DNA from: Minutocellus sp. GHC0000111 | Lineage: Eukaryota | Direction: 5' to 3' | Length of the DNA: 64,000 nt | NCBI GenBank assembly: GCA_977018835.1 | Contig: OZ361257.1 | Span: 124,001-188,000, forward strand | Shown here: piece after piece, positions 4,006 through 64,000 of the stretch | Layout: each line of letters starts with the position of its first letter | Numbering within the stretch: the first letter of the stretch is position 1 | Notes under the pieces: model-generated | What the model saw: only the letters and a program-made list of their open reading frames with translations | The model's database searches: none | What the model was told of the DNA's origin: nothing | Position numbers and translations under genes: made by a program

Positions 4006-4248
<243 letters not shown>

Positions 4249-8920: not shown

Positions 8921-11900
8921 ATGGAGAAGGGCGCTCATGTTTGGGCGATCGACAGTGAGGGTGACGATGCTTGGATTCTATATGAGGTTCTGAGCAAAAC
9001 GGACACAGAGTTGAAGCTGCAGCAGCTTGATAAGGATTCCAATGTTTTCAGCCGTGCTCGGGTCGATTCCAAGCCTTCCGCTGGGGCACACGAAGAGAAT
9101 GTGGAGATTCGCTACGATGGTGTAGAGCTGGCCAATGCCAAACTCTCAGAGGCTGATCGCGCGGAGGGAAGGGATGATGATCTCATCACACTGCCGCATC
9201 TTCATGAGCCGGCTGTTCTGCATGCTATTCACGAGAGGTTTACGACGCATGGCAAAATTTACACCTGGACTGGCCCCGTTTTGATCGCTGTCAACCCTTT
9301 CCAACGGCTACCTCTGTATACAAATGTGAGTTTGGTAACTTTTCAAAGAGAGCCTCATCGGATAGATTTATTGATGATTTTTTGGGGAAGCATAGTGCAT
9401 TTAGCTTGCTTTGGCTCGGCGCACTTCATTTTTCTTCGATTCATTCTTTTCTCTCCAATGACAACTGTAACTGCCAGGAAATTCTGGAGAGCTATCGTCA
9501 GGAGGGACTACTCAGATCCCAAAACATTGGCAGCTCGTCGGGGGGGCAGCTTGGTCCTCACGTATACTCCATTGCCGACCGTTCGTACCGTCAAATGATG
9601 TCGGACAAGCGGACTTCGCAGTCTATCCTCATCTCGGGAGAATCCGGAGCAGGGAAGACGGAGTCAACAAAAATTGTCATGCTGTACCTCACAACGTTGG
9701 GGTCATCTCATCATCAAGTAAAAGGCGACGATGCCGCTGACAACGGTGCATCATCAGGCCGTGCATCTCTCAACGACATGTCCATCATGGAAAGAGTCCT
9801 CCAATCGAACCCAATCCTCGAAGCTTTTGGCAATGCCCGTACACTCCGTAATGATAACTCTTCGAGATTTGGAAAGTTCATCGAATTGGGCTTCAGCCGA
9901 GGAGGTTCCCTTCTCGGTGCGAAAGTGCAGACCTACCTCCTCGAAAAGGTTCGGGTTGGATTCCATGCCTCTGGCGAAAGAAACTATCACATCTTCTATC
10001 AACTTCTTCGTGGAATGACCGAGGAACAAAAGAAGCAATATGGTTTTCACGATGGAGAAACCCACGGCTTGGAGCTTGCAAATCACTACCACATGACCGG
10101 CCAGGGCGGTGCTCCGCAGCTTCGAGAGTTCACCGACGAGGAGGGATTGAAGTACACCCTCAAGGCCATGAATGCCCTTGGATGGACAGAGAATAAGATC
10201 GAGGAAGTATTGAAGCTTGTTGCTGGTCTCATCCATTTGGGGCAGATTAACTTTGACTCGACAGAAAGTGAGGGTGGACAGGAAGTGTCGTTGATTCAGG
10301 ACGAGAACGTTCTTCGGAATGCCGCGGCAATGCTCGACGTCGACACCGATAAGCTCGAAGCCGCGCTAACGGAGCGTCTCATGATTACTCGCGGCGAGGG
10401 CATCACCATCCAATTGAGTCCCGAGCGAGCCGTTGAAGCACGAGATGCGTTAGCAAAGACCATGTACGGCTCCCTGTTCCTTTGGGTGGTCAATGAGGTA
10501 AATGGATGCATAGGGTGGGAAGATGATAGAGCCGTGCGATCATCTGTAGGTGTTTTGGATATTTTTGGTTTCGAATGTTTCGCCGTCAACTCGTTTGAAC
10601 AGCTCTGTATCAACTTCACCAACGAGGCCCTCCAGCAGCAATTCAATAAGTTTATCTTCAAGATGGAACAGGCAGAATATGAGGCGGAGAAAATTTCGTG
10701 GGAGTTCATCGAATTCCCCGACAACCAAGACTGCCTCGATACAATTCAGTCGAAGCCGAGCGGCATCCTTACAATGCTTGATGACGAATGTAGATTACCC
10801 AAGGGCAGCGATAGAAATTGGGCAAATCGGCTGTACAAACAGTACATTCCCAATACTGGTCAAACCGAATCGGAGAATGCGCGCTTCCTTGCTACGCCCG
10901 TCCAAAAGTCGAGGGCAATTTTTTGCGTCCGTCACTTTGCCGGTGTCGTCCAGTACATGGCTGAAACTGGCTTCCTCGAGAAAAATAAGGATAAAATGCC
11001 GCTGATGGCACAGAATCTGTTCGAGACCGCGCCGAGTCACCTCGTCAAGAGTATGTATAATATCCAGAAGATGGAATTTGAAGAGAAGAGCGGGAAGGCC
11101 AAGGAAGGAACCGCGAAGGGGAAACCCTCAAAGGCCAAAACAGTCGGGATGCAATTCAAGGAGCAGCTAAAAAATCTCATGGCGAAGGTCGAGACAACTG
11201 AGCCCCATTGTGTTCGCTGTCTCAAGCCAAATGACGCCGCCAAGCCAAAGATGCTCACTAGACAAAGGCTGACAGAACAGCTGCGATATGGTGGTGTCCT
11301 TGAAGCCGTTCGGGTAGCTAGAATGGGCTTTCCCGTACGTCTCCCACATGATGCGTTTTTCCAGAGGCACCGAATGCTACTTCCGTCCACTCCGGAAAAT
11401 TTGTTGCCCTGGAGCATGGAGAAGGTACCACCTCAAGACTTGTGCATTCGACTTGTTGATCTTTTGCTTGAAGAGGGGCAAAGGCAGAAGACCGAGGGAT
11501 CGGGTTCGTGGAAAGAAGACGAAATTGGTCGATCGGAACGGATCCGTAGAATGCAGAAAGCCCCCCTCCCTATCGCCTTTCCGAAGATGGACGTGCAGCT
11601 AGGTCTGACGAAAGTCTTCATGAGGAAGCCTCCCCACGACGCTCTTGAGGCACATAGTATTTTTCACCAGAACACTGCGGCGATTTTCTTACAGTCTTGG
11701 ATTCGCGGGATGCAGCAACGCAGGCGATTTCAAATAATGGGCGAGGCTGCACTGACAATTCAGCGCTTCTACCGTGGATGTGTTGGCCGTGCGAGGTAGG
11801 TCTCTCTTTGTTTTGGATTTCTTGCCCTCTATTTCAGTGTTGCATCTGTTTTTGTCCTCTCAACTTTTTGTGACTGTAACTTCGACATGCATAGGTGGTG

Positions 11901-14650
11901 GAAACTTCGTGAAGCGGATGCAAGCGATCTTCTTACAAAAGCGCTTCGAATGCTGTTGTGTCGAAGGCGACACAAGCGCATGAAAGAAGGAGCCATCCAA
12001 TACCAGTCGCTTTATCGTGGACATGCAACGAGGAGGGTCTTAGCAGCAACGAAAATCCAGACTCGGGTTCGAATGGCGAAGCAACATGGAGCATGCCGCA
12101 AGCTCCAATCTGCAACCATAGCCCTTCAGTGCGCCCTTCGAATGCGTGTTGCGCGGAAGGCTTTGTTAGATTTGAAGCATGAGCAGAAGGACATCGGCAA
12201 GCTTCAAGCTAACAACGAAAAGCTAAAGATGGAAATGGCGAGCCTCAAGGCAATGCTTCAAGCACAGACGCAGGGAGACAAGAACAAAGAGGAAAGCGAG
12301 AAGGCGATAAAGCAGAAACAAATGCAGATAGGCATTTTAGAGGCAAGAATCAAGCAGCTTGAAGAAGAGCTGGAAAAGGAGAGAAAGGTCGTGAAGAAGC
12401 TTGAGGAGTCAGTGCATGCCCAAACAGTTCAGGCTGAGCGGCAGCTCGAAGAGATTCACAATCTTCGTCGGCACCAACGTTCCCTGTCATCAAGTTCGGC
12501 CCATGAATTGGAGCGTCGCCAGCACAAAGAGCCAATCGCATCGAAGTTTGACTCATCGTCGAATCTTGATGCCGTGTCAATGGATCAAGTTGCCGAGCAG
12601 CAGGCCCTTGTTGCCAAGCTCGAGGATGAGCTCAAAGCTGAAAGGCGTTTTCGTCGAGAGGCCGATGGAGAGATCATCAAATTGCGCGCGCAGATGAGCG
12701 GGGTCCCTCTCAATGATTCTGATGTTGATGCTCTTGTATCGCAAAAGCTGGATCAAAAAGAGGCCGACTCCCAGCTTGTTGAAAAAAGGCAAGAGCATAG
12801 GTGAGAAATTAGCGTCTCACATAGGAATTTGTACCTTGCAGCCTGTGCTCAGCAACATCACTCACCCCCTACTTTTTTCTTTCTTTCAAACCGCCACCTC
12901 ATTGACCATTAATTGCACTGTTTTCCTTTTCCTTTTTCCTTTCCTTGTGCTGTTGTTTTCCCTTGGCTCCTTGCTGTACCGCCGCTCAATGACACGGCTC
13001 TTGATGATCTGGTTGGAACATCAGCAGTGCACGATTACTGAACAACAGGCATTTATCTAATTCTTGAAAGTGCTTTTGTAAAGGGCTCTATGTAGTAATA
13101 TTTTCTAATGTATGACCACCCTCCCCCCTCCCCACCACTCTGTCACTTTGCCACCCCCCCCCCCACACACACACACACCACACACTTTCGTGTCCCTACT
13201 TCATCTTTTCTTTCTTTCCTTTATCCTTTCTCCAAATGATCATCTGCAGAAACAAGACAGAAACACCACCCGAAGTCACGGGCACAGAAGTAACAAAGGA
13301 CGACAAAATTGTCCAGCGGTCTCCGAGCGAGTACTTCCCCTTGATCAGAAGAGGCTTTGCTAGCGAAAAAGAGGCAGGCAAGGAAGAAGAGCAGGTTGTC
13401 ATGTCTGGTTGGCAAAGGGAAGTGTCAAACAGGAAGGAGCGGGAAGAGGCACTGCGGGAGGAGGTAAACCAATTCGAATCGAAAGCTCAAAGGTTCACAA
13501 GAATCATGGAAGATGGTGTAGATGTCACAATGTGGCAATTGAATCGTAATGCCGGTCTTGGTCCAGAGGAAACGAGCGATGAATTTGTCCTCAAATCTAC
13601 GGCTGTCCACGTAAAGCTTCACAGAAGAGGTGATCTTCTTGTCCAGGCCGTCCTTAGTTTCAGTGCTAGGGGTGGATACTTGAGCAAGGCCTTGGGAAGA
13701 AAAAAAGGTGCGAGCAATCAATGTGGTGATGCTCTGTGTGAATATTTTCCTTTGATTATTTGCTCACGATTAGTTTGTCTGCGCATTTTTTTTAAATGTT
13801 TCAGGAGATGCATCATCCCTTGAACCTCTACCCATCCACGAAATTCTTTCGGTTAGGGCTGGCTGTGTTGGTTATGATCAATCTCTGTTGCCCAGTGCCA
13901 GTAAAAGCAAGTCAAAGGGGAAGGGATCGGATAACAAGCACTCAAGTCTCTTCCTCACTGTTGGGGCCACACAAACACCCATGGCAACTTCCAGGGTGTT
14001 CTTTCTTCGCTTCAAATCAAGGGCTGCACGTAACAATCTAATGATGGGTCTGCGAGGCCTTCTTGCGGACATGAAGGTCCACGAAGGAGTCAGCATATCC
14101 AGCATTCACATGCCACGCACCGACAGTGTTCAATCCCGTCGGAGACTGCTCGGTGGAAAGGCTGCCGAACACAGTCATGAGGAGGAAATTGCGACGACAA
14201 TCGAAATGGATCCCGCTGAACACGCTGATGTCATGATACCGCTAATTGATGTCCATTATCTCATCAACAAGGAGCGGGAGGCATGCGATCGCCTCCTTTT
14301 GATGATGCTCCAAGGATCAGCCGATCTTAAGGACAAAGAAGACGAGGAAATGGCTCTCCGTGAAAAGCTTGAGGAGGCTCTAGTGGAGAGTTTTGAGAAA
14401 GACCGAGTTGCAGCAAACGACAGTAAATTGATCATGCAGCTTTCGAAAAAGTTGGAAACTCTCCTCATGGACAACGAGGACTTACGGTAAGTTGTTCCAA
14501 CCATGAGACAATTTTCTTTCTCATCTTTACGAACATTGGCTGACGCTCTTTTTCATGTTTACTTCCTCTAATGTCAGTGACCAAAATGATCGCTTGAATA
14601 CGCGACTCGTGGTGTTGGAGTGTAGCCAGCTTGAGAACATGAATTCTTAG
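8921..14650 (+). CDS. Myosin heavy chain (motor, IQ motifs, coiled coil, PH-like tail)
   Basis: P-loop GESGAGKT, NPILEAFGNARTLRNDNSSRFGK, DIFGFE, IQ motifs (IQRFYRG, YQSLYRG). Exons approximately 8921-9325, 9478-11795, 11895-12800, 13250-13707, 13805-14486, 14578-14650, with compatible intron phases. Confidence 0.95.
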
Positions 14651-14879
14651 AAAATGGAACAAAAAATTACAATCTTTTAAATATTGCAGAAAACACATAC
14701 ATGCATGAAAATCCCAATGAACACACTATGTGACTGACTTGAACTGAAAAATTCGGTAAATCATCTAGAAAAGCAGCATCTAAACTCTACACACACACAA
14801 ACACACTACTGAATCTATTTCCATTAAGTCAGAAATATGAAAGTCGTTGCTACAGAACGGTGTGCACCACAGTGCTGCC

Positions 14880-15108
14880 CAAACGATTCCCTCATTTCAG
14901 GGCTCTGCAAGAATTGGACGACGATGACACCGCCTTCTTGTCAGAAATTATCATCCTTGTCATCGCAGCATCCCTTCATCGATTCGCCGCATGTGATTGT
15001 GTTCTCCAATGGTACAACAATCGTCCTGCAGAAGATTGGACCCTTACATGCCATCGGTCTCGCCAAACAATTTCGTCTTTGCAAGGCTCTAATCGCATTC
15101 GAGCAAAT
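14880..15108 (+). repeat. Diverged single copy of the 203-bp repeat unit
   Basis: Shares TTGGACGACGATGACACCGCCTTCTTG..CATCGATTCGCCGCATGTGATTGTGTTCTCCAATGGTACAAC..TCTCGCCAAACAATT with the arrays. Confidence 0.9.
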
Positions 15109-15151
15109 TGTTTGACGACGTAACGAACTTGTATGTAGTAGATAAGTTAAT

Positions 15152-15245
15152 GTTGGTAGTTAGCTGGGATTTGACCGTTGGATTCGTTCCAACGATCACC
15201 TAACTCGCCTACTACTACATGTAGTAGCTTTGCTGATTTGTAATG
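15152..15245 (+). mobile_element. SINE-like dispersed repeat copy
   Basis: GTTGGTAGTT..GGGATTTGACCGTTGGATTCGTTCCAACGATCACCTAACTCGCCTACTA..TTTGCTGATTTGTAAT, matching copies at 40665, 41404, 45608 and 58005. Confidence 0.75.
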
Positions 15246-15393
15246 GATAAGTTAAGAGTTAACCCACGGGGAACTCCGTGGTTAACCTACACTTAGACTT
15301 ACCTCGTACTTCTATTTCTACGTAGGTACGTTTTTTAGGAACATTCACATTTTTCACTGTTAGGGCTGTGAGCTCACTCAAGCTATTCTCAGC

Positions 15394-18108
15394 ATGCCAA
15401 GACCTCTCCTCGGACTACTTGTCATCCCATGCATCCTCGTACAATCGACGCATCATTCCTACCACGACGACTTTGCGGGGCAAATTGCGTCAGAAATTTT
15501 CAGGCATGTGCCTCGGGGTGGCGCGAGCACACAGAAAACTGATGAACTTGCGATGGCCAAGGGTCGTGATCAGCCTTGGTATCCCTTTTCTCCCATGTCG
15601 GCATTCCGTGTCCTCCACAAGAAAAGTATGCTGGTGAAAGAAAACGAAGAAGAAGAGAAATTAGAATTTTTGCTGGGAGAGGAAGAGGAGAAGGACGGAC
15701 CGAACAGTGCCGCAGTCGAAGTGTCTAGCAGCTTTACCGCCAATTTTATTGTCGATGATGCGAATAGGAGTAGCAGTGCACATATTGAATATTTCGCAGA
15801 CAATGGAAGGACCGTGGAGATACAAGATTCTCAAATGGCAGATATCAAGGGTAAAATCAGTGCACTCCACTCTCAAGACTGTGATTCTCCGTCGAAGTCC
15901 CGTAGGACGCGCCGAAACGTCGCAGAAAAAAGACTCCCAGGAGACGACAGTCTAGATCGCACCGAGATGGTTCATCCAACATCGACTCTTCCATTGAGTT
16001 AGACGATGGAAACAATGGGGAAGAGGGATGCACACAGGCCTTGATGGAAAAGTGTTGTATGTTTTGGAGGAGACCAATGAGCCATCAACAGGAAAAAATG
16101 ATTTTGCTATGCCACTCTACAATCATTCTGCGGAATGTAGAGAAAGTCTGTACATTTCATCAGGATATGTGAGCATTATTGTATTTGCCTCAGGCAATTC
16201 TAATTCTATGTATTTTTATGCGTGTTTGCTAATTTGAAAAACAATCTGAACCTCCAAACCCTCTCGAACTCTATTGTGATGCAGTGGGCTACAATTGACG
16301 CGCTGTGTTCCTTTGGAAAGTCTGCGACATATCCAGGCCTTCGATTGTCTCGCTATTTGCGACCCCTACGAAAAATAGCAGCAAAAACAACTGGTTTGCA
16401 TGGAGTAGTAAGTCAAAAGAATTGCACAGGAACCACACATCCTCTTTTGAGAAGGAATAAACCATCTGTGCAAGACAACAATGAACATGTCTTCCGGTCC
16501 AAAACAGACTCACCAAGCATGGTTGCAATTGAAAATCACACCACTTCTGATGCGGATGTATCGTGCTCTCGACAAATCCGAAGGGGAAACTGAATGCGTC
16601 GCTTCAGTCGATTATTGTCGTTTGGCCGTCAAAATCGGAACACACTGTCGCACAATTCGACAGATTCAGTGGGACTCTCTGCAAGACAGACTGGATCAAT
16701 GCTCAATCATAGTGCTCTCCATGGTAATCTGAGTTTTGGTTCAAGTATCAAGGACATCACTGTTATCAAAGAGATGCGGAAAAGAGCAGAGCGGGTTAAA
16801 GAAATTGACAGGATGATTTGCAGGATCCAGAAAGACGTCGTGGAGTTGCAATGTGAGAAGGACGACCTCCAAAGGCGTCCAAATCCCTTGTATAACTACA
16901 CTAACGTTTATCCCTCAGAGGACCCTCCTGGTGGAGGCAGGAATTCAACCGAAACTTGCTTAGCGAATCGAACGGTTCGGGAATTCAACTTCCCTCCCCC
17001 GCAATTCGCTGATGCGTACATCGAAGATCTTGTTGACAGTGGGAGACTCATCATGTTGAACCACACACAATTGTGGCAGAGGCAAAAGGACGATTTTGAC
17101 GGTGCTAAAGACGACATGGACGAAGACGAGCTGGCGGGGGGACTTCCCAATGGTCTGTCGAGTTCTTCCAATGCCAGGATAAGTGACGGTGTGACGGTAG
17201 AGAAAAAATACAAAAATTCGCGTGGCTCATCTGGTAGCTGGTTCCTTCGCCAGTCTCTGGGCAGAGGTCTAAGCTTAGGGGAGAAGATAGGAGAGACGGT
17301 AGAATTGGCTGCCTACAGAGCTGTCTGCACTTCAGTCATGTCGATTTTAGCACGGGGTGTGTCGGCACTTCATGGAGTCAATGTCATGACACACTCTGAC
17401 ATTCGAATATTTGTTGAGACAGCCCCAGATCTCCCCCCAGTGGCAAAGGGAGCCCTCCCCGACGGAGAAAAATATGCAGAAGAAGCAATCCGAAAAGCCA
17501 TCAGACGGAGTGCAAAGAAACGGAAGAAAAAGTCAAGGAATTATCAGGGTCGCAGCAGTGGTCCAACGGCGGAAGGAGATGAAGTCTTTCTGCAGAGGGA
17601 TGCTGTAATTGAAACGCTTATGTCGCACTGTCAAATCTCGGCGCCGTTGCTAAAGCTGTTTCCACTCTCGTGGCAGAGGGCTCTACTCGGGAACATAATA
17701 ACTCTTGTCGGAGCTATAGTGTCCGACTTTGTAGATGGCATTCAAATTCAAATCCTAGGTCACCAGCTTTCTCTGTCGTTCAAACCGATAACAGAGAAGG
17801 ACGTGATGAATAGCATTGTTGGATTTGGTGGTGCAAGACATCGTGCAAGCGTCGAAGAGTTCGAGGCTGCCGTTGAGGCAACAGCACGGGATGTCAGCAA
17901 GAGCCTTGAGTTCTTGGACCGATGGCATGAGCGAGCACTAGGCGGGGGTGTACTCCGGGCTCAGATAGGGAATTTGGTTGCACGTGTCGTCCTTACTCTT
18001 ACCGATGAGGTTCTGGGTGGGGAAAAGTTTGACCTTTGGTCGGCTCAAATAGGAGGTCCTCGCATTGTAGCTGGTTTGGAACAACGGATCGAAGACACAC
18101 AAACATGA
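15394..18108 (+). pseudogene. Signal-peptide-bearing hypothetical protein, disrupted
   Basis: N-terminal hydrophobic stretch and PRGG motif. Frameshifts near 16000-16030, a probable intron at ~16169-16284, and an in-frame TGA at 16591-16593 directly followed by the 504-aa ORF. Confidence 0.6.
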
Positions 18109-18543
18109 TCATGTGGGACAGGTAAAAAAATTGAGATCCACTGGAGTTGTGCAATCGTTCGGTACCTAGCTAGGCCTAGATACACGCATGCTACGTAGTA
18201 GTTGGTGGTATTGAAACATCTCCAGTTTCAGGGATGAGCACATTTTCCGTCAAAATACAGCCAGCGCAAGCTTTCATGCCCGTAGATCAAATAAAAAGCT
18301 TCTTTTACAATGGTAATAGGAGGGTATCGTGGAAGAGTGTCTGAAGTTACATGGTACATGTGCGAGGTCAGATTCGCGAGAAATCGAGCGCCCGGTTTTT
18401 GACTGCTTTCGAGGGGATTGAAAAGCGCCTCGATGAATAGTCATGCTGAAATATTTAAGAAAATGGCTATTTTTACTCTAATTTTGATTTATCTTCATGT
18501 GAAACAATAATTCGGATAAGACTTTAGATTTCAGCGGCTCTAA

Positions 18544-19160
18544 TCAAATGGACGCGTTCGTGCGACGCGACGGTTCGGCCTCCATCTCGTCTTCATCTTG
18601 AACGATGGCATGATACTCGCCTCGGATCGGCAGTACGATGCATTCGTCCCGGATCTCGCACCACAGCCAATCCGGGATGAGCTTGAGCTTCTTTAGCTCC
18701 CGCTTCACGCCGTTGAACTTGTAGATGAAGGCAACTGAGGAGTGGAACATCTCCGCGGCCTTGTCGTACACCGATTCAGTTATTGCCACGACATCATCCA
18801 TGTCGAGGGGCATGTTCTCGGCCCTTATCGCCCGGCAGACGAGTCGACTGACGACATTGAGGAGCATGTGCTTCTCAAAATCCTCGGGCCCGTCAATCTT
18901 GAGAGTTTTCTCCTGGTCAATGATGATGGCCAAGACAGCGGTGAGCATGTGTTCAATCCATTTGTGTCTCGGGCGGAAGTCGAAGCTGAGCATTTCGATG
19001 ACGCGATCGGCATGCTTGGACCGGTATACTGCTTCCCAACGAGTGCCGATGATTCATCTGATTCGGCCGCCTTCCGTTCTGTCATCGACGATCTTGCAAC
19101 GGCGACCCGGCGGTACACTGCACCATGTCTCTTTGCAATTGCCAAGTGCAGGGAGCAGGC
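18544..19160 (-). pseudogene. Antisense accessory ORF inside the transposon
   Basis: The 149-aa protein-like ORF 18993-18544 extends upstream in frame through one TGA: CKETWCSVPPGRRCKIVDDRTEGGRIR*IIGTRWEAVYRSKHADRVIEMLSF. Confidence 0.45.
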
Positions 19161-19218
19161 AAAGGTGGACTATTCGGTGCTGTCCAGCGCAGAGCATGGT
19201 GCACGATTTTCGGGATGG

Positions 19219-20465
19219 ATGAAGGCGCATGGTGCTCTACCTGCATCTGAGAAGGCGATGTGGGAGATGAAGAGGAGATCTCATCTGGCTATGCAGCCAT
19301 ACATTCGAGATGTTATTGTTGATGCTCTGATACGAAATCCTCGGGAATCTTGGCGGGAGCTGGAGGTGGATGTCAACTTTTGGTGTTCCTACTCGGCAAT
19401 GCGGCGGTGGATAATGTCGCGGGAAGGGTTCCGGTACTATGCCGAAAGGATCATCCCTCTCCTTACTACACATCAGATGGAGAAACATTTGGCATTTGCG
19501 CGGAAATTCCGAAACAATTGGGGGCTCGGCGGTGGCAAGTTTCTCCTTTTTGTGTTCGATGAGAAGTGGTTTTGGGGCTTGGTTCTTCGATCGTATGCCA
19601 AGCAAGTTGCAGAATTGGGCATTGATCCTCGGTCCTTCTCGGCACATCACCGAAATCACATCAACAAGTGCATGGTGGTGGCTGTCACTGCCTTGGCTTT
19701 TATTGACAGCATTGAGAATGGCGGCATTGCGTTCAAGCTTGGACTTTTTCGGGCTCAGGCGCATAAAATTGCGAGGCAGATGGTAAGGGAGGCGGTGCGG
19801 CAGGCAGATGGTAGAATCAAATATTGCGGCCCGGTGGTTTGGAAGAAAGACATCTACACCTTGTGGATTGCGCGGTGACTGGATGCAGCCATGGCACCCT
19901 TGATAATCCCAAGTTCCCACTGAAAGCTTTGTTTGAGAACAAGATATTTCCGGATGTTGAGGCTTTGGTCGGACCTGGCGGAAAGTTTGAAGGCTATTTC
20001 CCTATTTTCCAGGGCGACAATGCTGGGCCCCATGCCGAGACTGAATTTGTGGAATATGTGGAAGGATGCTGTCGGGACAAGGGATGGCGTTGGGAACCTC
20101 AGGCCCCGCAAATGCCCCATATGAATGTTCTTGATCTGTCTGTTTTCCCTTGCATGTCAAAGCAGCATGCAATGTTGTGCCGCGATTGGGAGGGGCTGAA
20201 GGTTTTGACAGAGGATCAGACTTGGGATGCAGCGGAGGAAGTTTGGATGGGGCTGGAAAACTGGAAGATCGCATCGGCATACATCCAGGCTCATAGAATT
20301 GCAAAGAAGGTAATCGTTGCAAAAGGCAACAATGATTTTCTTGGAAACGGTGAAGGCATTCATGTTGGGGTGCGAAAGGATTTCAGGCCGACTGAAAATG
20401 GCATGGTTCGGATAGATGGGAAAATTATCGCTCCTCCTCCTGCTGATCCAACCATGGATAATTAG
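19219..20465 (+). pseudogene. Mariner-like transposase, frameshifted at ~19840
   Basis: Catalytic motifs FDEKWF, FQGDNAGPH and PQMPHMNVLDLSVF, split over ORFs 18742-19878 and 19824-20465. The start position is approximate. Confidence 0.88.
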
Positions 20466-20853
20466 TCCTGCGGTGCTTTTAAGTTATATTGTGTTTAATA
20501 ATACTAGATTGGATTGTAGATCTGGATACTAGCTGCTGCAATACCTAGGTACATGTACTTTGCATTGTACATGTATTCAATGCCGGTAGATCTAAGATTC
20601 AGGCGGTTGCGGGCCGAAAAAGTCGCTGTTTTGGTCCCGACCCTGCGCTCGATTTCTCGCGAAACGGACTTCGTACCGGTATTACTAGCTAGCTCGATCA
20701 ATCACCTGTAGCTAGTAGATCAACAGCTTAATTTTTCATGCTTTCATCAGCGATGCCGCATGGCTAATAGACCATTACATCACTGTTCTGTGACGAATTT
20801 CGTGATGTGCAAACGTGCAACAACTAAGAGAGGAAACATGTTACTTTATAACA

Positions 20854-21678: not shown

Positions 21679-21904
21679 GATTCAAGTGTACTATCTAGTG
21701 CCTACGTACGAGTTCGTACGTCTATCGGGCTGAGAGTAAGTAAAACATACGGCTTCCTAGGTACGGTGCTCTACTTTACCTACCTAGGCCTACCTACCTA
21801 CGTAGGTACTGAATGAACGGTGCTCTTTTTTACCGCCTTACGTACACAACACATTGATCGTAATTTGAAGACAATTGCAAAACATTTTGATCTCTGCTAG
21901 TACC

Positions 21905-24456
<2,552 letters not shown>

Positions 24457-24660
24457 GGACCAAGTGATTAGGCTAGAAATCGAGATCTTCACAGTAGATC
24501 TAGAGTCTAGATACCGGTAGATCTACATCTACATCTATAGATAGATCTACACAATGGAAAGACTGACTGAAACGTTGACGTGAATCTAGTGAAATTCAGT
24601 CAATGAATAAAAAAAGATCTAAATCTTGACTACCAAGAGTACCAGTAAAGTCTAGATCTA

Positions 24661-41375: not shown

Positions 41376-41403
41376 TAATATATACATATAGGAATTCCTA
41401 CTG

Positions 41404-41526
41404 GGATGGTCTGTTCGTCGTTGGTAGTTCGCTGGGATTTGACCGTTAGGATTCGTTCCAACGATCACCTAACTCGCCTACTAATGACATTCTTTGCTGA
41501 TTTGTAATATATATATATATATATAT
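41404..41526 (+). mobile_element. SINE-like repeat, cleanest copy, ending in (TA)n
   Basis: Homologous copies at 15152, 40117, 40200-40540 (minus), 40665, 45608 (minus), 50172 (minus) and 58005 share the 3' end TTTGCTGATTTGTAAT. Confidence 0.75.
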
Positions 41527-47042: not shown

Positions 47043-47125
47043 TACCGTACCGGTACGTAGAGCAGTTGACTCATTGAGTCGACGACGAGTCATTGAGCAC
47101 AGGGACCTCATTAGATCTACCGGCA

Positions 47126-49823
47126 CAGTCCGTCCCCTCCTATAAGCAATGTCATTGACCCCCCCCCCCCAACAAAGATGATCTTCATCAAGATCTTTAT
47201 AGTTAAAGTAAGTCTACATCTGTTGGCTGACGATGCGAAGCATCAGAAAACAAAAGGAATTCGACTTTGCTGCGGAACCAGGCACCGTACAAGACTGCAA
47301 TGTGGCGAGGGCACCGTAGGTCTAGATCTATCTAAAACAGCTTTTGAAGGCGCGTGCTAGCTAGCTCTTTATGGTCTTGCATAGAGATAGTTTTAAAACA
47401 TAGAGAGTCTGTACATGGTAGCCCATGTTTCCAATGATCGATGCTTCTCAGAGTTACTCTACATGTAGCTGAATCTAGATCTACATTTTGAGACTGGCCA
47501 ATGTTCTGAGGAAATGGATTCTTTTCTCGTCATTCGAGTAGAGAGTATGTGAACTTGGTAACCTTATCGCCCCGTTGATACCGCACCCCGAGCTCAAGGT
47601 CGTCGATCTCAACCTTCACCTTCTCTCCATTGCTATCAGGAGTGTGTCGCTTGAGACTCGAGATCTTTTGATTGCAGCCAACAGCGGCATGCTTGCGACT
47701 TTTTGCCTGACCGTCGGATTCATAGTCCTCGTATTGAAGTTCCAATCGCTCTGTAACAAACTCAGAAAGGCCGTAGATTTCGGCAATGTGGTCGCAAAGA
47801 TGGCCGGCGGTCATGTCAGCATTCTCGTCGTAAATGTCTCGCCAATCTTTGTCATTTTTTAGCGCATCGTTGACCTTAGCATCTGGAGAGAAATTCTGAT
47901 TACGCGTAAGCTTTTCCACCTTCTGCTCCCTGGCGACTCTCTTGATCATGATGCGCCCATTGAAATCAACGTCTTTGGTTTCATCCTTCATTGGTCGGCC
48001 AACAACTCCAAGACACATAACTTTGACAGGGTGTCTTCTGGATCAAATTTTCGGGCTTGCCTCGGAAGCATGGATAGACGCGAGGTTCGGACTACTTAGT
48101 TCTTCGTCAGAAAGTGGCAACATCTTGATCTTTCGTCGCCGAGTAGTAGTGTAAAACCACTTTTCATCAAGATACGCTACAGGAATGTTGGGATCGGTCG
48201 TAATGTCCTCCCACTTTTCGATCCAATCAAGTCGCTTCCTACAATGTTCGGGGGTGAGCCTCGGCTTCTCGATCGACGACTTCTCCTTACCGCCTTTCTT
48301 TTTCCACCAGCGAAAAAGCTGAAGACGATGGAGACTAATTGTCAGCCTATCTTCATCTGGAGTAGCTGATTTTGCGCTCACACAGTCAGCTAGCTCCTTA
48401 AAGGTTGCCATCGCACCCTTCATCCGAGTAGCACACCGACACAGCTCGCGGAGATATCCTGGCTCCTTCTCCTCGATCATGTCCGTGTATGCCTTCCTTC
48501 CACGAACCTCCTTTCTGCCGATGGGATTGCTGATGCCATCAGTAAGGCTTTTGTAGAGCTGGTCTCTCCACTTGTAAAGCTGAGAACCACCGACCGGTTG
48601 ACTTGGCATAACCGTGATCGTACGCAACTTGCCGACACGCGGCAGTTGCAATTTGTTGCCGGTCTTCATACGTGCGAGTTGGTCGCCGCATCCCCACCAA
48701 TCCGCGAGAGCCACGGCGCTGAACCGCATTCTTTCATTCGCCTGCTTTTCTTTTCTGATTGGTGTTGGTTCGGTGACGGTTGCATTGGGACGAGGAGGAC
48801 GGAGCATGTCATCGTTGGCCATCCGAACAACAAAGTCGAGGCCGAGAGCGACCTTTACCTGTTCATCAATGTCACTGGAGGTGGCACAGACAACGGAAGT
48901 ATCGGCTCCTCCTAAACCTTCATCATTGGGGGAGGCTGCAGCTGCTTCAGTGGCGGAAGTATCACCAGTTCCCTTCAGTATGCTGAGGAGACTTGCTGGC
49001 ATCCAACCCAGTTTCTTGGCCTCGTCGACTAGTGATTTTACTCTTGCTTCGCAATGCGCTGACTGTACCTCCTTTCTGTGAGCTGACAACCTCTCACCTA
49101 GCTTAGTAGCTAAGACAGTCGAGCGCCCAGAGAACAGAACTTCATCGGGATTTCTTTTCTCGTGCACCTTCTGTCCCTCCGGTCCAGAGAATTTCGGGTG
49201 GTTGTCCTCCTTCTTTTTACGCAACCTGTGAGCACAAACACAAGCGCCCTGCGTCTTGTCTTCCCTCTCGGCCGACACGTCGACAAGTGCAACTTCAAAC
49301 TACAATGCTCCTTGAGATGTTGCTGCATATCCTTCCATTTTTCCTCGTTGTACTGTAGCTCATACTTTCCTCCACCGACGGACTTGGAACGCAACAAGTC
49401 GGCCTCGATGAAAGCAGGGAGGACGTCTTCCCATTTCTGCCGAGAACCAACACAAATGTCATCTTTGCCGCAGGAATCGGGGGTTACTCTCCACCACAGA
49501 TCCTTACCAGCCCTTCGAATGACATCTGCTGCAAGGAGAAAGGCCATGGGGATAGGAGGAGGGGCCGTCCTCTTCTTCGCCGACGACGGTGACGGTTTGG
49601 CGGGCGAGTTTGACCGTGGCCGCTTCTTCGACGTGTTTGCGCTCGGCGATGGTGTTTTCGGCTCAGCTGCCGCCTTTGCCGCCTTCCTGGATGCCTTGGT
49701 GTTGCCTCTCTTGCTCCCTGAGAACGAAGTTCTGCTGCGTTTGTATTTTTTGGGCGTGGTCTGGTTGGTCGTCGTCATCGTCACAAAATTTGCGGGTTGC
49801 GGTGAGGGTGTGCGGGGGACCAA
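47126..49823 (-). mobile_element. Second mariner-like (DD39D-type) transposase relic, frameshifted and C-terminally truncated
   Basis: YLDEKWFY and SRRHPVKVMCLGVVGRP..DFNGRIMIKR across ORFs 49823-49110, 49278-48043 and 48018-47530. A CAGTCCGTCCCC TIR-like end lies at 47126; the partner TIR was not found. Confidence 0.8.
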
Positions 49824-53541: not shown

Positions 53542-53901
53542 CGATGAAACGAAAGTACTACGTAGCTAGAGCTAGCTACAGCACTAGCGAGCTCCGCTGG
53601 GCGTAGCTAGGCCTACGTAGCTAGACTGCTAGGCCTACCAATTGGCACGTACCTAGCCTAGGTGCTAGTAGTAGCGTAGCACAATGAAAATGAATCAAAA
53701 CGAGACGGAAGACGGAAAGACTTTCAAATCCTCTCCTTCTCCGTGTTTCAGTGTGTCCGTCCCGCAGAAAAATGTCTTGCCGTCACCCCGTTTGCTCTTC
53801 CCACCATCAATTTACGCCGCGCCATCAATCTCACTTCCTTCAGAGATGCATCACATCACTTGTACCACTGCTGGGTAAGCTTCTTTGAGAATTCTGCGAC
53901 C

Positions 53902-56900
53902 ATGAAACAACATAAGAGAAGCGATCGGAGTCCTTCAGATCTTGGAGGCATCCCATCATTTCGGCAGGGACATCTTTCCGCCACCAGCGATGTGAGACGC
54001 TACCAATCTCTCTCAGCCCCGCGTGTCGACGGGTTTGATTTCTTCCTCGACAGAGGTTTGTCGCGGGCAATTTCGGACATTGAGCCAGCAGAGTTTGACC
54101 TGGTCGATCCAGGACACAGTGAAATGAATGATGGAACTAAGATCAAGTTTTGGGTTGAGGGAGTAAAGTAATCCCTCCAATGAAGGCGGGCTCGACTAGT
54201 GGTGACTCTCTCAGAAGATATCAGTCCTCTTCGCAAGTTTCTGGATTTTCGCCCCTAACTCCACGGGAGTGTCGTGAGCTTGGCTTGATGTATTCAGGTG
54301 CTATGACTGGAGAATTCTGCTATCAACTTATCCAGAGAGATTCGGATGGAGTCGAAAGCACCGGAAGAGTTGTAAGGATCAAGAAAAAATTTGGGGACAT
54401 GCCAATCATGGTTATGAGCAAAGCCTGTCACCTTCGAGGAAAGACGCCAAAGGAACTTGTTCAAATGAGGGAAGAGGTGAGGAATCAATAATAGAAACAT
54501 GTAACTTTTCTGTGCGAATTCATCTCTCGTGTAACCCCAGACTTCTTCCTCTAATTTTCCCACTTGCTTGAAATCTCAACTTCATACTTTCAGCAAAATG
54601 AGTTTGGCGGATATTTCATCATCAATGGAATCGAAAGATGTGTTCGACTTCTTCAGATTCCACGCCGAAACCATCCGTCCGCTATACAACGCTCCAATTT
54701 CAAGAACAGAGGGCCAGCCTTCTCAGATCTTGGTGTCGCCATCCGATGCTCCCGCCAAGTCGGAGATCAAACTTCTATTACCAATACTGTACACTACCTC
54801 ACCTCAGGAGGGGCGAGTTTTCGTTTCTCTGCACGAAAGCAGGAGTTTCTTATTCCTGTCATTATTCTTCTTCGCGCCCTATCTGGAGTAGCGTCGAAAG
54901 CAACCGCAAGTGAAGGTGGATTGGGCTGCACCGACGAGGAAATCTTCCGCCGGACAATGCAAGGGGCCGAATCCAACACTTTCCTACGTGCCAGGGCCGA
55001 GCTGCTTTTGCAGGACGCAAACCGTTTTGAAGGTTTACACACGTCGGAGGAGTGCTTGGCATATTTAGGTGGAAGATTCCGTGCTATGAGTATGCGCGAA
55101 GACAGCACGTCTGATGTGGATGTCGGTCACTACATGATTCGAAGGTATGTGATCTTGACCATCTCTTTTGTCATCACGTTTGCATACTATGATTGTATTA
55201 CATTATGTATGCACTGTGTTCCTGTTTGCACCCTTCTTGCTAACCTTCCCTCCGTTCACTTACATCTTATTTTATTAGATACATTCTTGTGCACCTTTCC
55301 GATTATAATGACAAGTTGGAGTGTCTTTTCCTACTTCTTCGAAAACTGTGCTCATTTGCAGCGAATGAATGTTCGGTAGATGATGCCGATTCTCTTCAGA
55401 ATCAAGAAACACTGCTTCCAGGCCATCTCATCACATCTTTCGTCAAGGAGAAATTTGAAGAAATGCTAATCGCGATCCGTTTAGGCTTCCTCAAGGAAAT
55501 GCAAGGAGACTATGGTAGATTTGTTGCCAAATTGGACGATAGCACCTTCTGGAACAAAGCTATAGATCGATTTGGTAATCTTGGTTCTGGATGGATAGGC
55601 AGAAAAGTGCAGGTGTTTGTAAGCACTGGAAATATTGTCTCATCTACTGGTCTTGATCTGATGCAAGTCAGTGGATACACAATCGTAGCAGAGCGTTTGA
55701 ATTTCCTTCGCTATTGCGCCCACTTTCGTTCTGTTCACAGAGGTCAATTCTTCATGGAGATGAAGACCACATCTGTCCGAAAATTGCTTCCAGATCAGTG
55801 GGGCTTCTTGTGTCCGGTGCACACACCTGACGGTGGACCGTGCGGTCTTCTCAGTCATCTAGCGCTCAAATGCAAAGTACTCGCAGATGCTGATCCTCTT
55901 ACTAGCACGCCGAAAGAGACATCCCTAGATAGTGTTCTTATTTCATTAGGAGTAAGTCCTGTCTGTGCCAAAGGAGAAAGTGGTCAGGGCGGATCTACCT
56001 CTGTGCATATGTTCCTTCCTGTATGTGTCGATGGCCGTGTAGCTGGTGGGATTCCTGCTAGACTGATGAAGGTAGTTGCTGCGCGTCTGAGAAGAATGAA
56101 GGTGGGAGGCAGAAATTCTGTCCCGAGTACACTTGAGATTGTGTGCATACCCCCAGGTGAGTTGGGTGTGTAGTCGTAGTAATCTTATTGAAAGTCGTGA
56201 TGTTGTTTTTATGAGTCCCATCACTCCTTAAACACAATTTGAAATCTACCTCCATCACGCTTTACGAAGGTATCAATGGTGGACCCTATCCTGGCCTTTT
56301 CCTCTTCACGGATGCTGCTCGCGTAATCCGGCCTGTGTTGCATCGAGCATCTGGTAAAGTGGAAATGATCGGGCCGATGGAGCAGCCATTTATGGACATT
56401 GCATGCCTGCCGGAGGATGTTCGTGAGGGATCCACTACTCATCAAGAATTAGATCCGACTAACATGCTGAGCCTCATCGCAAGCTTGACGCCCTTCTCTG
56501 ATTATAATCAGAGCCCACGGAACATGTACCAGTGTCAGATGGGGAAGCAAACAATGGGAACACCAGTCCATTCCCTTCCCCAAAGGTCTGATAATAAGCT
56601 GTATCGGCTCCAGAATCCGCAAGCTCCGATCGTTCAGACGGCTCGGCACGGAGAATACAAAATGGACGAGTGCCCCAACGGCACAAACGCGGTAGTAGCA
56701 GTTCTGAGTTACACCGGTTTTGACATGGAAGATGCAACGATATTGAATAAGTCTTCATACGAGCGAGGTTTTGGTCACGCTTCAGTTTACAAGACAATAA
56801 TGATCGACTTGCAAGATGAGATTGAGAGGTCTGGGGGGTCGAAGGGTGGTAAGGTTCGAGTTGCTTTTCGAAACAAGGAGAGGCAGGATCGTGGATCTAG

Positions 56901-57889
56901 GAGAGCTGAATCTTCTGAGGACAGCGACGGAATTGATAAATCCGATAACACCGATTGGGAGTATCCAAACCTTAGCGAGGACGGCCTTCCGCATGTTGGA
57001 ACAAAGGTCAATGAGGGTGATGCAATGTACAGTATTGTTGACAATCTGACCGGGAAATCAAGAGTGGGAAAGCATAAAGAAAAGGAACCAGCATATATTC
57101 AGGCTGTGAGAAGACTTGGATCAAACAATGAAACCTCTATGTCCCCCTCAGGCTCAGACAAGGCCTCTATCACTTTGAGATTCAATAGAAATCCTGTCAT
57201 CGGCGACAAATTTTCAAGTCGCCACGGCCAAAAAGGTGTTATGAGTATCCTGTGGCCTCAGCACAACATGCCTTTCAGTGAGAGCGGAATATCGCCAGAC
57301 ATTATAATCAATCCTCACGCATTTCCCAGCCGAATGACCATAGGCATGCTCATTGAGAGCATGGCTGGCAAGAGCGGGGCCTTACACGGCCACTTTCAGG
57401 ATTCGACACCATTTTCTTTCCACGACTCTGGCGATAAGAATGCGATCGATCATTTCGGCGAACAGTTACAGGCTGCTGGGTTTAGTTATTTTGGAAGTGA
57501 GCCGCTGTACAGTGGCGTTTCAGGATGTCTCATGCACGCAGACCTTTATATTGGAGTGGTGTTTTACCAGCGATTGCGTCACATGGTGTCTGATAAGGCA
57601 GGTCAACACTCTAACGAGACAGCCAATCAAAGGGAGGAAGAAAGGAGGTGGTATTAGGCTCGGCGAGATGGAGCGCGATTCCCTTCTGAGTCATGGAGCT
57701 TCTTTTCTCTTACATGATCGACTGGTCAATTGTAGTGACAAGCACATTGGTGGTCTTTCTGGGAAGGACTTGCTAGGACACGACAAGAACTTGCCGTCCG
57801 AGCCACTTGTTATGCCGTACGTCTTCCGCTACCTGACTAACGAGCTGGCTGCGATGGGTGTGAAGATGTCCCTGGAGAAACGGATGTAG
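53902..57889 (+). pseudogene. RPA2: RNA polymerase I second-largest subunit, disrupted
   Basis: GGYFIINGIER, AERLNFLRY..HFRSVHRG, WGFLCPVHTPDGGPCGL, NQSPRNMYQCQMGKQ, IGDKFSSRHGQKG, GEMERD. Introns 54477-54593, 55145-55278 and 56157-56269. Frameshifts at ~54168 and ~57598; the C-terminal Cys zinc site is absent. Confidence 0.93.
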
Positions 57890-58495: not shown

Positions 58496-59974
58496 CTAGC
58501 TAGATAGTAGAGAGTCTAACATTTTTAAATGCTCTCGGCAGCGTAAAATTGTATCTCCCCCCCCTCCCCCCCACGCTTTCGTTCCATCGAGGGAAGACAG
58601 TGAGGACACCCCGCGACCTAGCTTTGCAATGTCAGATATTGTTTCTTTAGGAACCGTGCTGCTCCAAATAGCTTGCTTCACGCTCATAGGTGCAGACACT
58701 TGACGGATTGACGGAACCAAATTCAAAGACGAGGGGGGCCTTTTCGCTGGGTCATCATCTAAACTCACGTGCCTGCGTTCAAAATCCTCACCTATGGAAG
58801 GAGGCGACAATTCTCTATATGGTGTGGTCGATGTTGTTTCAGAAGTGCTATCAAGCAAATAATCTCGATAACTGAAGGTGAAATTGTGAGCAATTGCAAA
58901 AGCTAGCAGCATTTCAACGCAAACTGCAAGATCTTGCAGTCCTTTTGCCACATTCTGTGCATCCCAGTTTCCTATTGGCCCTATGATTCCAACATTTCTC
59001 AAAATCAGGAAAAGGACGCCCTGCCACCAGGTGAAGAAAACAACACCTTTGATACAAAGAAACTTGCCCACTGGCCTCCAATCTTTAGGGCTGCGCAATT
59101 CTTCCTTGGTAGCAACAAAAAGCTTCACAAGACAATACATCGCCCACCCCATGCTTACAGACAGGATGAGGGAAACGTAGGTAAACACACTTCGGAGATT
59201 GAAAGATCCTTCTGAGTAAAGTCCCAATGGTGTGAGAACAACAAAAATGACAGTGGTGATCGACTTGACAACGATGAACTGCAGAGCTCCTGTCTTGCAC
59301 TGCACCATAAATTCTTCTCCCATGTTCCATCGCGACAGCACCATTCGTAGCGGCCAAGGATGCTCCCCCAAAGATGGCGCCTTTCTTTCTAAACTTATGG
59401 ACAGTGCATCCTCACCGCCTAAAAGTGCAATCATGTAATAAACGAATGACGAGATGACATATGCCTCGTACAAGTCTCGTAACGGTTCGGTGTAGACCGT
59501 GATCGGCTGTAAGAGTAGTGATGACCAACTAGTGAGAGAATAGAGTGGGACCATCCAGAGAATACGAACCACGTACTTCTGGACATCAGGGGCAAACCAA
59601 TGTGTCAGGTGGAATACGATGCTCGCCACGGATGTTGGCACGGTCATAACAACAAAGAACCCAGCAACGAAGAATGAAGTCCATGATACTGAGCCAGCCC
59701 GGGCAGACACTACGGCAAGGCATGGTATCGCCGCAAGAAAAATTACAGATGCTGTGGCCAGCACGGTACCTGCAGCGCTCCGGAAAGAAATGTGGTAATT
59801 AGCCCATTTTATCCCACTGACGTGCGATGTGTCAAGATTCCCACTGGCGGACTGTTGGTGATTGCTGTTTGTTAAGAGTGGAGTGCGGGAGTCATCTGAC
59901 AACACATGTGTTGCCGGTAAAGATGCCTGAGACTTCGCACTATGTGCGCTGCCGAAATGTTCAGCTTGGACCAT
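58496..59974 (-). CDS. TMEM184 / organic solute transporter OST-alpha family membrane protein
   Basis: QKYVVRILWMVPLY, RDLYEAYVI, LQF, KFLCIKGVVFFTWWQG, CVEM; multiple TM segments. The C-terminus is uncertain at the C-run ~58557-58572. Confidence 0.9.
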   Translation of the reverse strand: MVQAEHFGSAHSAKSQASLPATHVLSDDSRTPLLTNSNHQQSASGNLDTSHVSGIKWANYHISFRSAAGTVLATASVIFLAAIPCLAVVSARAGSVSWTSFFVAGFFVVMTVPTSVASIVFHLTHWFAPDVQKYVVRILWMVPLYSLTSWSSLLLQPITVYTEPLRDLYEAYVISSFVYYMIALLGGEDALSISLERKAPSLGEHPWPLRMVLSRWNMGEEFMVQCKTGALQFIVVKSITTVIFVVLTPLGLYSEGSFNLRSVFTYVSLILSVSMGWAMYCLVKLFVATKEELRSPKDWRPVGKFLCIKGVVFFTWWQGVLFLILRNVGIIGPIGNWDAQNVAKGLQDLAVCVEMLLAFAIAHNFTFSYRDYLLDSTSETTSTTPYRELSPPSIGEDFERRHVSLDDDPAKRPPSSLNLVPSIRQVSAPMSVKQAIWSSTVPKETISDIAKLGRGVSSLSSLDGTKAWGGGGGDTILRCREHLKMLDSLLSS

Positions 59975-61038: not shown

Positions 61039-62019
61039 CCTATTCATCACCAACAATGCATGTTGGTGATTGCCATGGAAAATTGTTAGGAAACCACCAG
61101 AAATTTTTCGATGATCTAACCGAATGTTTTTTTGGTCGCGGCACAACTAGATCTGGAGAAAACAATTTGCTCCGCTTGCACAGGGGAATTTGGAGTTGTC
61201 AAAATTGGTCATGAGCTTATGAACTCTCTTAGCGTGAATCCTTATCCCTATTTTATCTGTTCCATATTTTCGTGGTGATGCGAGTCTCTTAGGGTGAATG
61301 TAGCCATGGAGGAATTTGGAGAACATTGGAGGCATCAAGATTGACCAGTTCAGTAGCTCTATGAACTCTCTTGGCGATTGATGCAGGGTGATGATGATTG
61401 ATCTGTTTTTTCATAGGAGTACAATCATTGCGATGATGTCACTTTTCTCGTGGAAAACTCAGCGTGGGAAAACTCAGCGCAGCAGACATGACAATGTGTT
61501 ACATGCACTTGCTCGAGGCTCCTACCAAGTTTCACTAGGCCTACATGTGTAGGTATTGGCAGGAAGGCTCACAAAAGTATCGCACACTTTACACTTTAGA
61601 TCGGTCGGTCCTTCCCATGCCCTTTACAAAGTTCAAGAGCTGCCAAGACAAGAAATCTCGCCTATTTCCCAACAAAGATCCATTTGAAATTCTACATGAC
61701 AAGCCTGTGCGGTAATTGCCTTTGTGCGGGACATAAGTCAGATTTACAATCAATTCATCCTATTGAAAAGAGTGAACGTGATTTACAATGCCTGATACAA
61801 TTACATGGAACAAAAAGGTCTAATGAATTCTTCCGGAACAACAGGCTCGAGGGGGAAAAAAGAAATCCATTTCTCTTGCACATCGCTCAGGCTCGATCCT
61901 ACATACTACAATATTTCTCTTCATCGAACCACATGAGTGTGCGGTGAATAAAAGGCTTTTGTTTTTCTTAGCTGAACAACTGCATGTAGTTTGTATTCTT
62001 CAATGCTACTACTTTCATC

Positions 62020-64000
62020 TTGCAAAAATTATCATGCTCGTCGTCAGGTGTCCCCATCAATTCGCCGCATGTGATTGTGTTCTCCAATGGTACAACTGTC
62101 ATCCTGCGAAAGATGGGACCCGTACATACCATCGTTCTCGCCAAACAATTCACTCATTCCAGGGCTCCAAGTAAATTGTTGCACTCTGCTGCAAGATTTG
62201 GACGACGATGACAACGCCTTCTTGGTAGAAATTATCATGCTCGTCGTTGGGTGTCCCCATCGATTCGCCGCATGTGATTGTATTCTCCAATGGTACAACT
62301 ATCATCCTGCGTCCTGCGAAAAATGGGACCCGTACATACCATCGTTCTCGCCAAACAATTCACTCATTCCAGGGCTCCAAGTAAATTGTTGTACTCTGCT
62401 GCAAGATTTGGACGACGATGACACCGCCTTCTTGGCAGAAATTATCATGCTCGTCGTCGGGTGTCCCAATCGATTCGCCGCATGTGATTGTATTCTCGAA
62501 TGGTACAACTATCATCCTGCGGAAGATGGGACCCGTACATACCATCGTTCTCGCCAAACAATTCACTCATTCAAGGGCTCCAAATAAATTGTTGTACTCT
62601 GCTGCAAGATTTGGACGACGATGACACCGCCTTCTTGGCAGAAATTATCATGCTCGTCGTCGGGTGTCCCAATCGATTCGCCGCATGTGATTGTGTTCTC
62701 CAATGGTACAACTATCATCCTGCAAAAGATGGGACCCGTACATACCATCGTTCTCGCCAAACAATTCACTCATTCATGGGCTCCAAATACATGCCGTACT
62801 CTGCTGCAAGATTTGGACGACGATGACACCGCCTTCTTGGCAGAAATTATCATGCTCGTCGTCGGGTGTCCCCATCGATTCGCCGCATGTGATTGTGTTC
62901 TCCAATGGTACAACTATCATCCTGCGGAAGATGGGACCCGTACATACCATCGTTCTCGCCAAACAATTCACTCATTCCAGGGCTCCAAGTAAATTGTTGT
63001 ACTCTGCTGCAAGATTTGGACGACGATGACACCGCCTTCTTGCAGAAATTATCATGCTCGTCGTCGGGTGTCCCCATCGATTCGCCGCATGTGATTGTGT
63101 TCTCCAATGGTACAACTATCATCCTGCGAAAGATGGGACCCGTACATACCATCGTTCTCGCCAAACAATTCACTCATTCCAGGGCTCCAAATAAATTGTT
63201 GTACTCTGCTGCAAGATTTGGACGACGATGACACCGCCTTCTTGGCAGAAATTATCATGCTCGTCGTCGGGTGTCCCCATCGATTCGCCGCATGTGATTG
63301 TGTTCTCCAATGGTACAACTATCATCCTGCGAAAGATGGGACCCGTACATACCATCGTTCTCGCCAAACAATTCACTCATTCAAGGGCTCCAAATATATG
63401 CCGTACTCTGCTGCAAGATTCGGACGACGATGACACCGCCTTCTTGGCAGAAATTATCATGCTCGTCGTCGGGTGTCCCAATCGATTCGCCGCATGTGAT
63501 TGTATTCTCGAATGGTACAACTATCATCCTGCGAAAGATGGGACCCGTACATACCATCGTTCTCGCCAAACAATTCACTCATTCCAGGGCTCCAAATAAA
63601 TTGTTGTACTCTGCTGCAAGATTTGGACGACGATGACACCGCCTTCTTGGCAGAAATTATCATGCTCGTCGTCGGGTGTCCCCATCGATTCGCCGCATGT
63701 GATTGTGTTCTCCAATGGTACAACTATCATCCTGCGGAAGATGGGACCCGTACATACCATCGTTCTCGCCAAACAATGCACTCATTCCAGGGCTCCAAAT
63801 AAATTGTTGTACTCTGCTGCAAGATTTGGACGACGATGACACCGCCTTCTTGCAGAAATTATCATGCTCGTCGTCGGGTGTCCCAATCGATTCGCCGCAT
63901 GTGATTGTGTTCTCCAATGGTACAACTATCATCCTGCGAAAGATGGGACCCGTACATACCATCGTTCTCGCCAAACAATTCACTCATTGCAAGCTCTGAT
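62020..64000 (+). repeat. ~203-bp tandem repeat array, ~10 units
   Basis: GACGACGATGAC recurs at ~202-203 bp spacing (one 210-bp unit with a 7-nt duplication); units differ only by point changes. Confidence 0.98.

Follow-up and report, generated by a model that had tools for sequence, protein, structure and literature searches.

Fungal repeat-induced point mutation (RIP) depends on repeats and turns CpA into TpA. To our knowledge, sequence-specific editing of adenine in genomic DNA has not been established for any natural enzyme. In a subset of Bigelowiella natans lines, Mettrop et al. (bioRxiv 10.64898/2026.01.13.699255) described TpA>TpG/CpA changes at a 1000-fold rate in integrated viral DNA; there, 210 of 211 regional mutations are of the TpA type, and an ADAT2-type deaminase is proposed, not shown. 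Bacterial TadA is reported to prefer UACG (PMC13170351) and a RID-related DNMT4 to occur in diatoms (PMC9998398). Here we followed the TpA>TpG/CpA change in 64,000 nucleotides of contig OZ361257.1 (Minutocellus sp. GHC0000111, positions 124,001 to 188,000; the window, its first letter being position 1), where it exceeds chance in genes and in a Tc1/mariner-type transposon, Tn1. An earlier reading of this DNA alone (the original prediction) had proposed a context-specific A:T>G:C process at TpA, which would remove Tc1/mariner target sites and target-site duplications (TSDs) and might serve as an uncharacterised genome defence, with collateral damage to genes. The process was borne out as a polarised excess in genes and Tn1 and can be narrowed to TA followed by a pyrimidine (TAY); "uncharacterised" goes too far, since the same dinucleotide change is the one described in Bigelowiella.

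The homologues of the myosin, RPA2 and AMPK proteins are diatom proteins, and Extubocellulus spinifer is in the nearest named myosin cluster (87% identical to the window). We take the source to be a Cymatosiraceae-like diatom. Window DNA was present in sponge metagenomes, in marine metatranscriptomes and in four runs of a single organism. Of the ten window open reading frames (ORFs) looked up, six matched proteins encoded on a 3.03-Mb ENA contig letter for letter, and relatives of window proteins at 95-99% identity lie on a 5.17-Mb ENA contig and on short contigs.

Polarised substitutions and their flanks

Substitutions were polarised from three sources. Reads over 5000-24500 gave 35 sites among the 40 rows listed of 550, at which the outgroup run X15 and one further run have the same letter and the window a different one (5 were discarded). 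Reads over 10270-11800 gave 11 extra sites among the 40 rows listed of 49, at which X15 and the RNA run X9 likewise share a letter that the window lacks; rows of paralogues, 18 rows with a difference in X15 only and site 11503 were discarded. The third source was amino-acid changes for which the protein of the 5.17-Mb contig concurs with half or more of the other relatives, after removal of misaligned rows next to frameshifts and of rows at ORF starts. The Tn1 TSD event, polarised by the empty site, was added to the count. The RPA2 sites were excluded from all counts because the homologues are just 76-78% identical and the changes follow from proteins only. A TMEM184 profile search, with relatives all at or below 61%, was not used.

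The 46 read-polarised sites comprised 23 A:T>G:C changes, 10 G:C>A:T changes and 13 transversions, whereas a P. tricornutum mutation list (supplement of PMC6604790, counted by hand) has 16 A:T>G:C against 67 G:C>A:T among its 146 entries. TpA>TpG/CpA accounted for 17 of 33 lineage-specific A:T>G:C events, a rate ratio of 6.5, TpA making up 14% of A/T sites. Without the three sites picked in the original prediction, 14 of 30 events remained at TpA (rate ratio 5.4, confidence interval (CI) 2.4-11.8, p=1.7e-5); with Tn1 left out as well, 11 of 27 (p=6e-4). The reads-only set gave 9 of 21 (p=0.001). Against a null with a twofold TpA background, the pooled unpicked set gave p=0.007. TA events that the original prediction had not listed include 10879, 11212, 11673, 13518, 38264, 38266, 38975 and 59634. 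Host genes or the DNA between them hold 13 of the 17 TpA events, and 12 of the 17 are something other than a Tyr replacement. Neither strand skew (plus:minus 11:6) nor transcription bias (coding:template 9:6) was seen among the TpA events.

A pyrimidine stood 3' of the mutated A in 16 of the 17 TpA events, compared with 52% expected (p=3e-4) and with 27 of 49 in the diatom genes used as controls (p=0.003); there was no such rule among non-TA A>G events. Per 1000 sites, two later events not included, the rates were 16.8 for TAY, 1.2 for TAR, 1.5 for VAY and 1.4 for VAR (R, purine; V, any base but T). TACG made up 4 of 16 events against 6% (p=0.013). Two TATA>TGTG doublets were seen (11209-11212 and 38263-38266), each with both changes on one strand; for the 15 TATA present, chance predicts 0.012 doublets, and just 0.1 even with hits three times commoner.

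Assembly error was ruled out for the myosin, PDZ and TMEM184 sites, whose derived letters also occur in runs X3 and X5 and in the 3.03-Mb contig; several sites of the first source are private to the window and stand outside this check. RNA editing was ruled out, both states being found in DNA contigs (ancestral in X15, derived in X5 and X3).

Decay of the genes and state of the copies

The genes of the segment are under relaxed selection. Among those for which close relatives or deep alignments exist, seven between 8921 and 59974, the essential RPA2 included, have stops or frameshifts or have lost invariant residues (Table 1). No premature stop and no frameshift arose by TA>TG/CA; they are ordinary mutations, and the changed conserved tyrosines are visible because selection is relaxed. 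The collateral damage of the original prediction therefore gives only part of the picture. Some lesions of the seven genes are common to the 3.03-Mb contig and run X5; a decaying haplotype, a duplicate or lineage-wide relaxed selection are candidate causes.

Table 1. Features of the window and the changes found in them
Feature	Position	Strand	Observation
TA-rich transposon footprint chains (example)	7680..8800		TA junctions counted over the intergenic DNA of the window
Decaying diatom myosin gene	8921..14640	+	TA>TG/CA at 10879, 11210, 11212, 11368, 11673, 13518; doublet 11209-11212
Gene(s) of no assigned family	15394..18108	+	Premature stop 16591 (C>T); TA events 15729, 16089, 17622
Tn1, Tc1/mariner-type transposon, frameshifted	18361..20675	+	Pfam HTH_Tnp_Tc3_2 below cut-off; empty-site joint 18359-20673
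AMPK/SNF1 catalytic subunit	22159..24270	+	G>E in activation segment (22595), frameshift near 23020; no TA event
Tubby-family gene	29721..32117	-	Premature stop 30911-30909 (K>stop, A>T)
PDZ-domain gene	37489..39147	+	Unpicked TA>TG at 38264, 38266 (doublet TATA>TGTG), 38975
Second transposon left end, terminal inverted repeat (TIR) CAGTCCGTCCCC	47124..47137	+	CA instead of TA; likewise 4645-6, 8657-8
RPA2, RNA polymerase I second subunit	53893..57889	+	Frameshifting deletion near 57597; inferred TA>TG at 55350, 55382, 56672
TMEM184/OST-alpha gene	58496..59974	-	Frameshift near 58560; TA event 59634
203-bp tandem array	62018..64000	+	Copies also 35322-35870, 7163-7670, 14905-15103

The letters quoted in the original prediction were all found where it had placed them. 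Its two myosin tyrosines are indeed lost, Y>C at 11210 (Y in 120 of 120 homologues) and Y>H at 11368 (119 of 120), and the reads polarise both as TA>TG/CA. The motif that it gave as PHYVRC is canonically PHYIRC here, and the I>V at 11212 is itself a second TA>TG. The window myosin has lost residues that 117-120 of 120 homologues retain. Replacement and silent changes in this gene stood at 10:2 on the window lineage and at 5:13 among X15-only differences (p=0.008), the neutral expectation being 74% replacement. Three substitutions within six bases (G>A, G>A and C>G at 10993, 10995 and 10998) form a non-TA cluster on the window lineage, and the X5 contig has a one-base deletion of its own at 11561 (depth 12, in a C run), which may be an error.

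The third tyrosine of the original prediction, in RPA2 (DECPNG, 56672), is Y in 113 of 120 homologues, but like 55350 (Y in 101 of 112) the change is inferred from proteins only. RPA2 also lacks its C-terminal zinc-binding stretch, and an intact RPA2 would have to exist elsewhere if the cell lives. Within a CRAL-TRIO gene, 51966-52007 is an exact 21-bp in-frame duplication. The gene at 16222 and the tubby gene have two copies each on the 5.17-Mb contig (P0437, P0439, P0447 and P0449), among which one is a 1114-aa fusion and another starts late, and this suggests rearrangement or decay on that contig too. Several samples thus have in common a diatom segment in which RPA2, AMPK and myosin are all broken; no published account of a decaying sponge-associated diatom was found in a search that left most subscription papers outside.

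Over the myosin motor, runs X9 and X15 are ancestral and keep TA. X5 and the window share the changes at 11210, 11212, 11368 and 11732, of which three are TAY transitions, two of these being picks of the original prediction. X3 equals the window over the motor except at 10958, and no second contig of the myosin gene was found in X3 at 80% identity or above. Over 16370-24500 the window is 0.5-1% different from the X1 and X5 contigs, which carry the ancestral letters in the rows listed, including no stop at 16591. Depth over 16370-21845 was about 1.5-fold in X1 and X5 and flat in X15, and in 2 kb of this region 14 sites separate the window from the X1 contig, compared with 5 in 3.4 kb over myosin. 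The differences, the ancestral letters and the raised depth suggest that intact alleles lie elsewhere and that the window represents a haplotype or additional copy in decay, which has been homogenised over myosin. In diatoms, mitotic recombination is reported to be frequent, as is loss of heterozygosity (10.1101/2020.11.08.373134).

Transposons, footprints and repeats

As the original prediction had it, the left TSD of Tn1 (18361-2) reads TG in place of TA, which is the letter pair at the empty site in X1, X5 and X15; further TA events lie within Tn1 at 19116, 19228 and 19401. Summed contig depth over 18363-20673, which does not equal copy number, was about 100 times single-copy in X1, several hundred times in X5 and about 4 times in X15. 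Ends of the CAGTCCGTCCCC family, three chance matches within genes being left out, read CA in 3 of 10 cases (47124, 4645 and the unpicked 8657), so that the CA reported at the first two is correct as letters but 7 of the 10 ends still read TA. Two small elements with this TIR lie head to head at 46677-47044 as a 370-bp imperfect hairpin. The repeat twin at 46967 fits TA>TG/CA (two of three copies).

Palindromic TA-flanked footprint chains, dense at 39780-42300 and found in other intergenic DNA, hold 94 copies of TAGATCTA, 56 of TACATGTA and 20 of TACCGGTA. The decay of such chains claimed in the original prediction was seen at G-TA-C junctions (4 of 11 altered, its own example at 7809 included) but hardly at C-TA-G junctions (1 of 26; p=0.02), as predicted by the TAY rule, which had been derived from the genes. 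The rule also accounts for the contrast between the TACATGTA footprints, with 27 TA>TG/CA variants compared with 8.9 expected, and the TAGATCTA footprints, which have no excess. The observed/expected ratio of TpA was 0.93-1.12 in intergenic DNA, 0.49-0.58 in transposons, 0.23-0.61 in genes and 0.53-0.64 in control myosins. The intergenic value lies at about 1 because the footprint chains keep TpA up, and the window contains no TA-poor or TA-erased block and no long-term TpA depletion.

Copies of the 203-bp repeat are 95-99% alike except that at 14905-15103 (86%). The tandem cases of the original prediction (62098, 62182 and 7474) are TA>TG/CA by majority, but the array alone was not significant (3 of 14 TA sites against 6 of 91, p=0.10); TAY was found at 3 of its 9 A>G columns. 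The difference at 15050, in the 86% copy, is ambiguous in direction. Unpolarised repeat pairs had no excess of the TA/TG class (26/491 against 39/974, p=0.28). Dispersed repeats had 10 reverse events among 80, the most common change being C>T (30 of 80); CA>TA made up 10 of these 30, and neither a clear CpA focus nor the polarity of RIP was found in them. A perfect (AC)117 tract occupies 4010-4244.

Proposed explanation and comparison with known systems

We propose that diatom genes are decaying here under relaxed selection with A>G at TAY about ten times over-represented, and that this probably came about through low-dose DNA adenine editing of the Bigelowiella type with a preference for TAY. 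One putative enzyme, TadA/ADAT-like, would make the TAY changes by turning A into inosine, a few sites at a stretch, where single strands are exposed. Silencing or redundancy of the segment may admit the editing, or may merely let its products survive. The share of editing would be roughly a fifth of recent substitutions, and the stops and frameshifts would not be its work.

Several points weigh against this proposal. Event numbers are small throughout, the TAY motif was set only after the data had been inspected, and the TpA bias is real but mild, TA-type changes being 11 of the 46 read-polarised substitutions. Against a twofold background the reads-only set was borderline (p=0.05), and 16370-18361 had one TA event among seven A>G in the rows listed. 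The polarised excess found in genes and Tn1 was absent from dispersed repeats, where a consensus test gave 5/304 TA sites against 11/898 (odds 1.35, CI 0.36-4.3, p=0.57) and TAY, at 3/164, did not exceed VAY, at 8/431. The 94 TAGATCTA footprints had TA>TG/CA variants at background (6 against 7.3 expected), and the 27390/42953 pair, offered in the original prediction as a further TA case, goes the opposite way (CA>TA, with C in four outgroup copies). Lastly, in near-identical myosin loci of another diatom (L025-L029), TpA was the site of 6 of 10 A>G differences (odds 8), some of them lying at multi-allelic columns, and by these loci the diatom background may be above twofold.

This last observation also speaks for an ordinary, diatom-wide TpA context effect, exposed by neutral decay and by eye-catching Tyr losses, which we consider unlikely. 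It would fit the TpA ratios of 1.4-2.1 in diverged myosin pairs of other diatoms (six triplets) and of 1.1-1.7 for the window myosin against L001, as well as the amino-acid changes of relatives (6 of 26 at TpA against 12%), and whenever a transition strikes letter one or two of a Tyr codon, the outcome is necessarily TA>CA/TG. However, the excess persists without the picked sites and over a doubled background, most events are not Tyr replacements, and the doublets would be unexplained. The control myosins had no preference for TAY (27/142, or 0.19, against 22/94, or 0.23, for TAR), whereas TAR and TAY events in the window stood at 1:16.

Error-prone repair synthesis of the polymerase eta type (WA>WG, W being A or T), for example after UV damage, could cause both the changes and the clusters, and clusters are present, including the non-TA one at 10993-10998. 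WA hotspots, with a TA hotspot on both strands, are reported for it (PMC7884765), but the motif as described there has no 3' pyrimidine rule. Among the few non-TA events here AA did not appear raised (AA 5, CA 7, GA 4 of 16; p=0.68, small n). We regard this origin as improbable. The defence of the original prediction, in which repeats would be targeted, TSDs and target sites erased and genes hit only in passing, can claim that all three transitions listed in Tn1 and its TSD are TA-type and that CA stands at three of ten CAGTCCGTCCCC ends, but it is very doubtful and not supported in the window, where intergenic TpA is near expectation without a TA-poor block, TAGATCTA is at background, dispersed repeats are not enriched, most footprints and seven of ten TSD ends are intact, Tn1-like DNA has very high depth in X1 and X5, and repeats are hit no more than genes.

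If low-dose adenine editing is the cause, a wider reading may be put forward tentatively: a TAY-specific adenine editor, processive over short runs, would occur in diatoms and reach silent or redundant single-copy host genes. The window belongs to a lineage that occurs in sponge metagenomes and shows wholesale gene decay and a likely transposon burst (Tn1); it would then represent the onset of such editing, and field samples would date the hits by branch, as with the four myosin changes common to X5 and the window, three of them TAY transitions.

Like RIP, the changes of the window are dinucleotide-specific transitions; unlike RIP, they have the opposite polarity (TA>TG/CA in genes and Tn1) and hit single-copy genes, and the process is not RIP. 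They resemble polymerase eta errors as clustered A>G at TA, and differ in the TAY rule and, on small numbers, in AA not being raised. The likeness to TadA and ADAT2 (A>I read as G; TACG in 4 of 16 events) is a resemblance only, their natural substrates being RNA, whereas the changes here are in DNA. No published description of TpA hypermutation in a diatom was found, again with most subscription papers outside the search.

The closest system is that of Bigelowiella, which shares with the window TpA>TpG/CpA changes on both strands, A>G/T>C being concentrated on TpA here, and a patchy occurrence in nuclear DNA of a marine alga. In contrast to its near-exclusive TpA mutations, those of the window are a minority; its target is viral, whereas here the hits fall on a diatom's own genes and on a transposon; and the long-term TpA depletion of targets expected for the Bigelowiella type is absent here. 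The available text of the preprint mentions neither a flank rule nor doublets nor diatoms. Tyr>Cys/His losses in such genomes should be read with caution, as they reflect mutation context. A polarised low-dose case gives the direction, a flank rule from hits and not survivors, same-strand doublets and the reach into host genes, none of which fully erased blocks can give; it narrows the mechanism and offers a testable signature for diatom population data. TpA>TpG/CpA hypermutation as such is already known from Bigelowiella; what is new here is an early, low-dose and polarised view of it on ordinary host genes.

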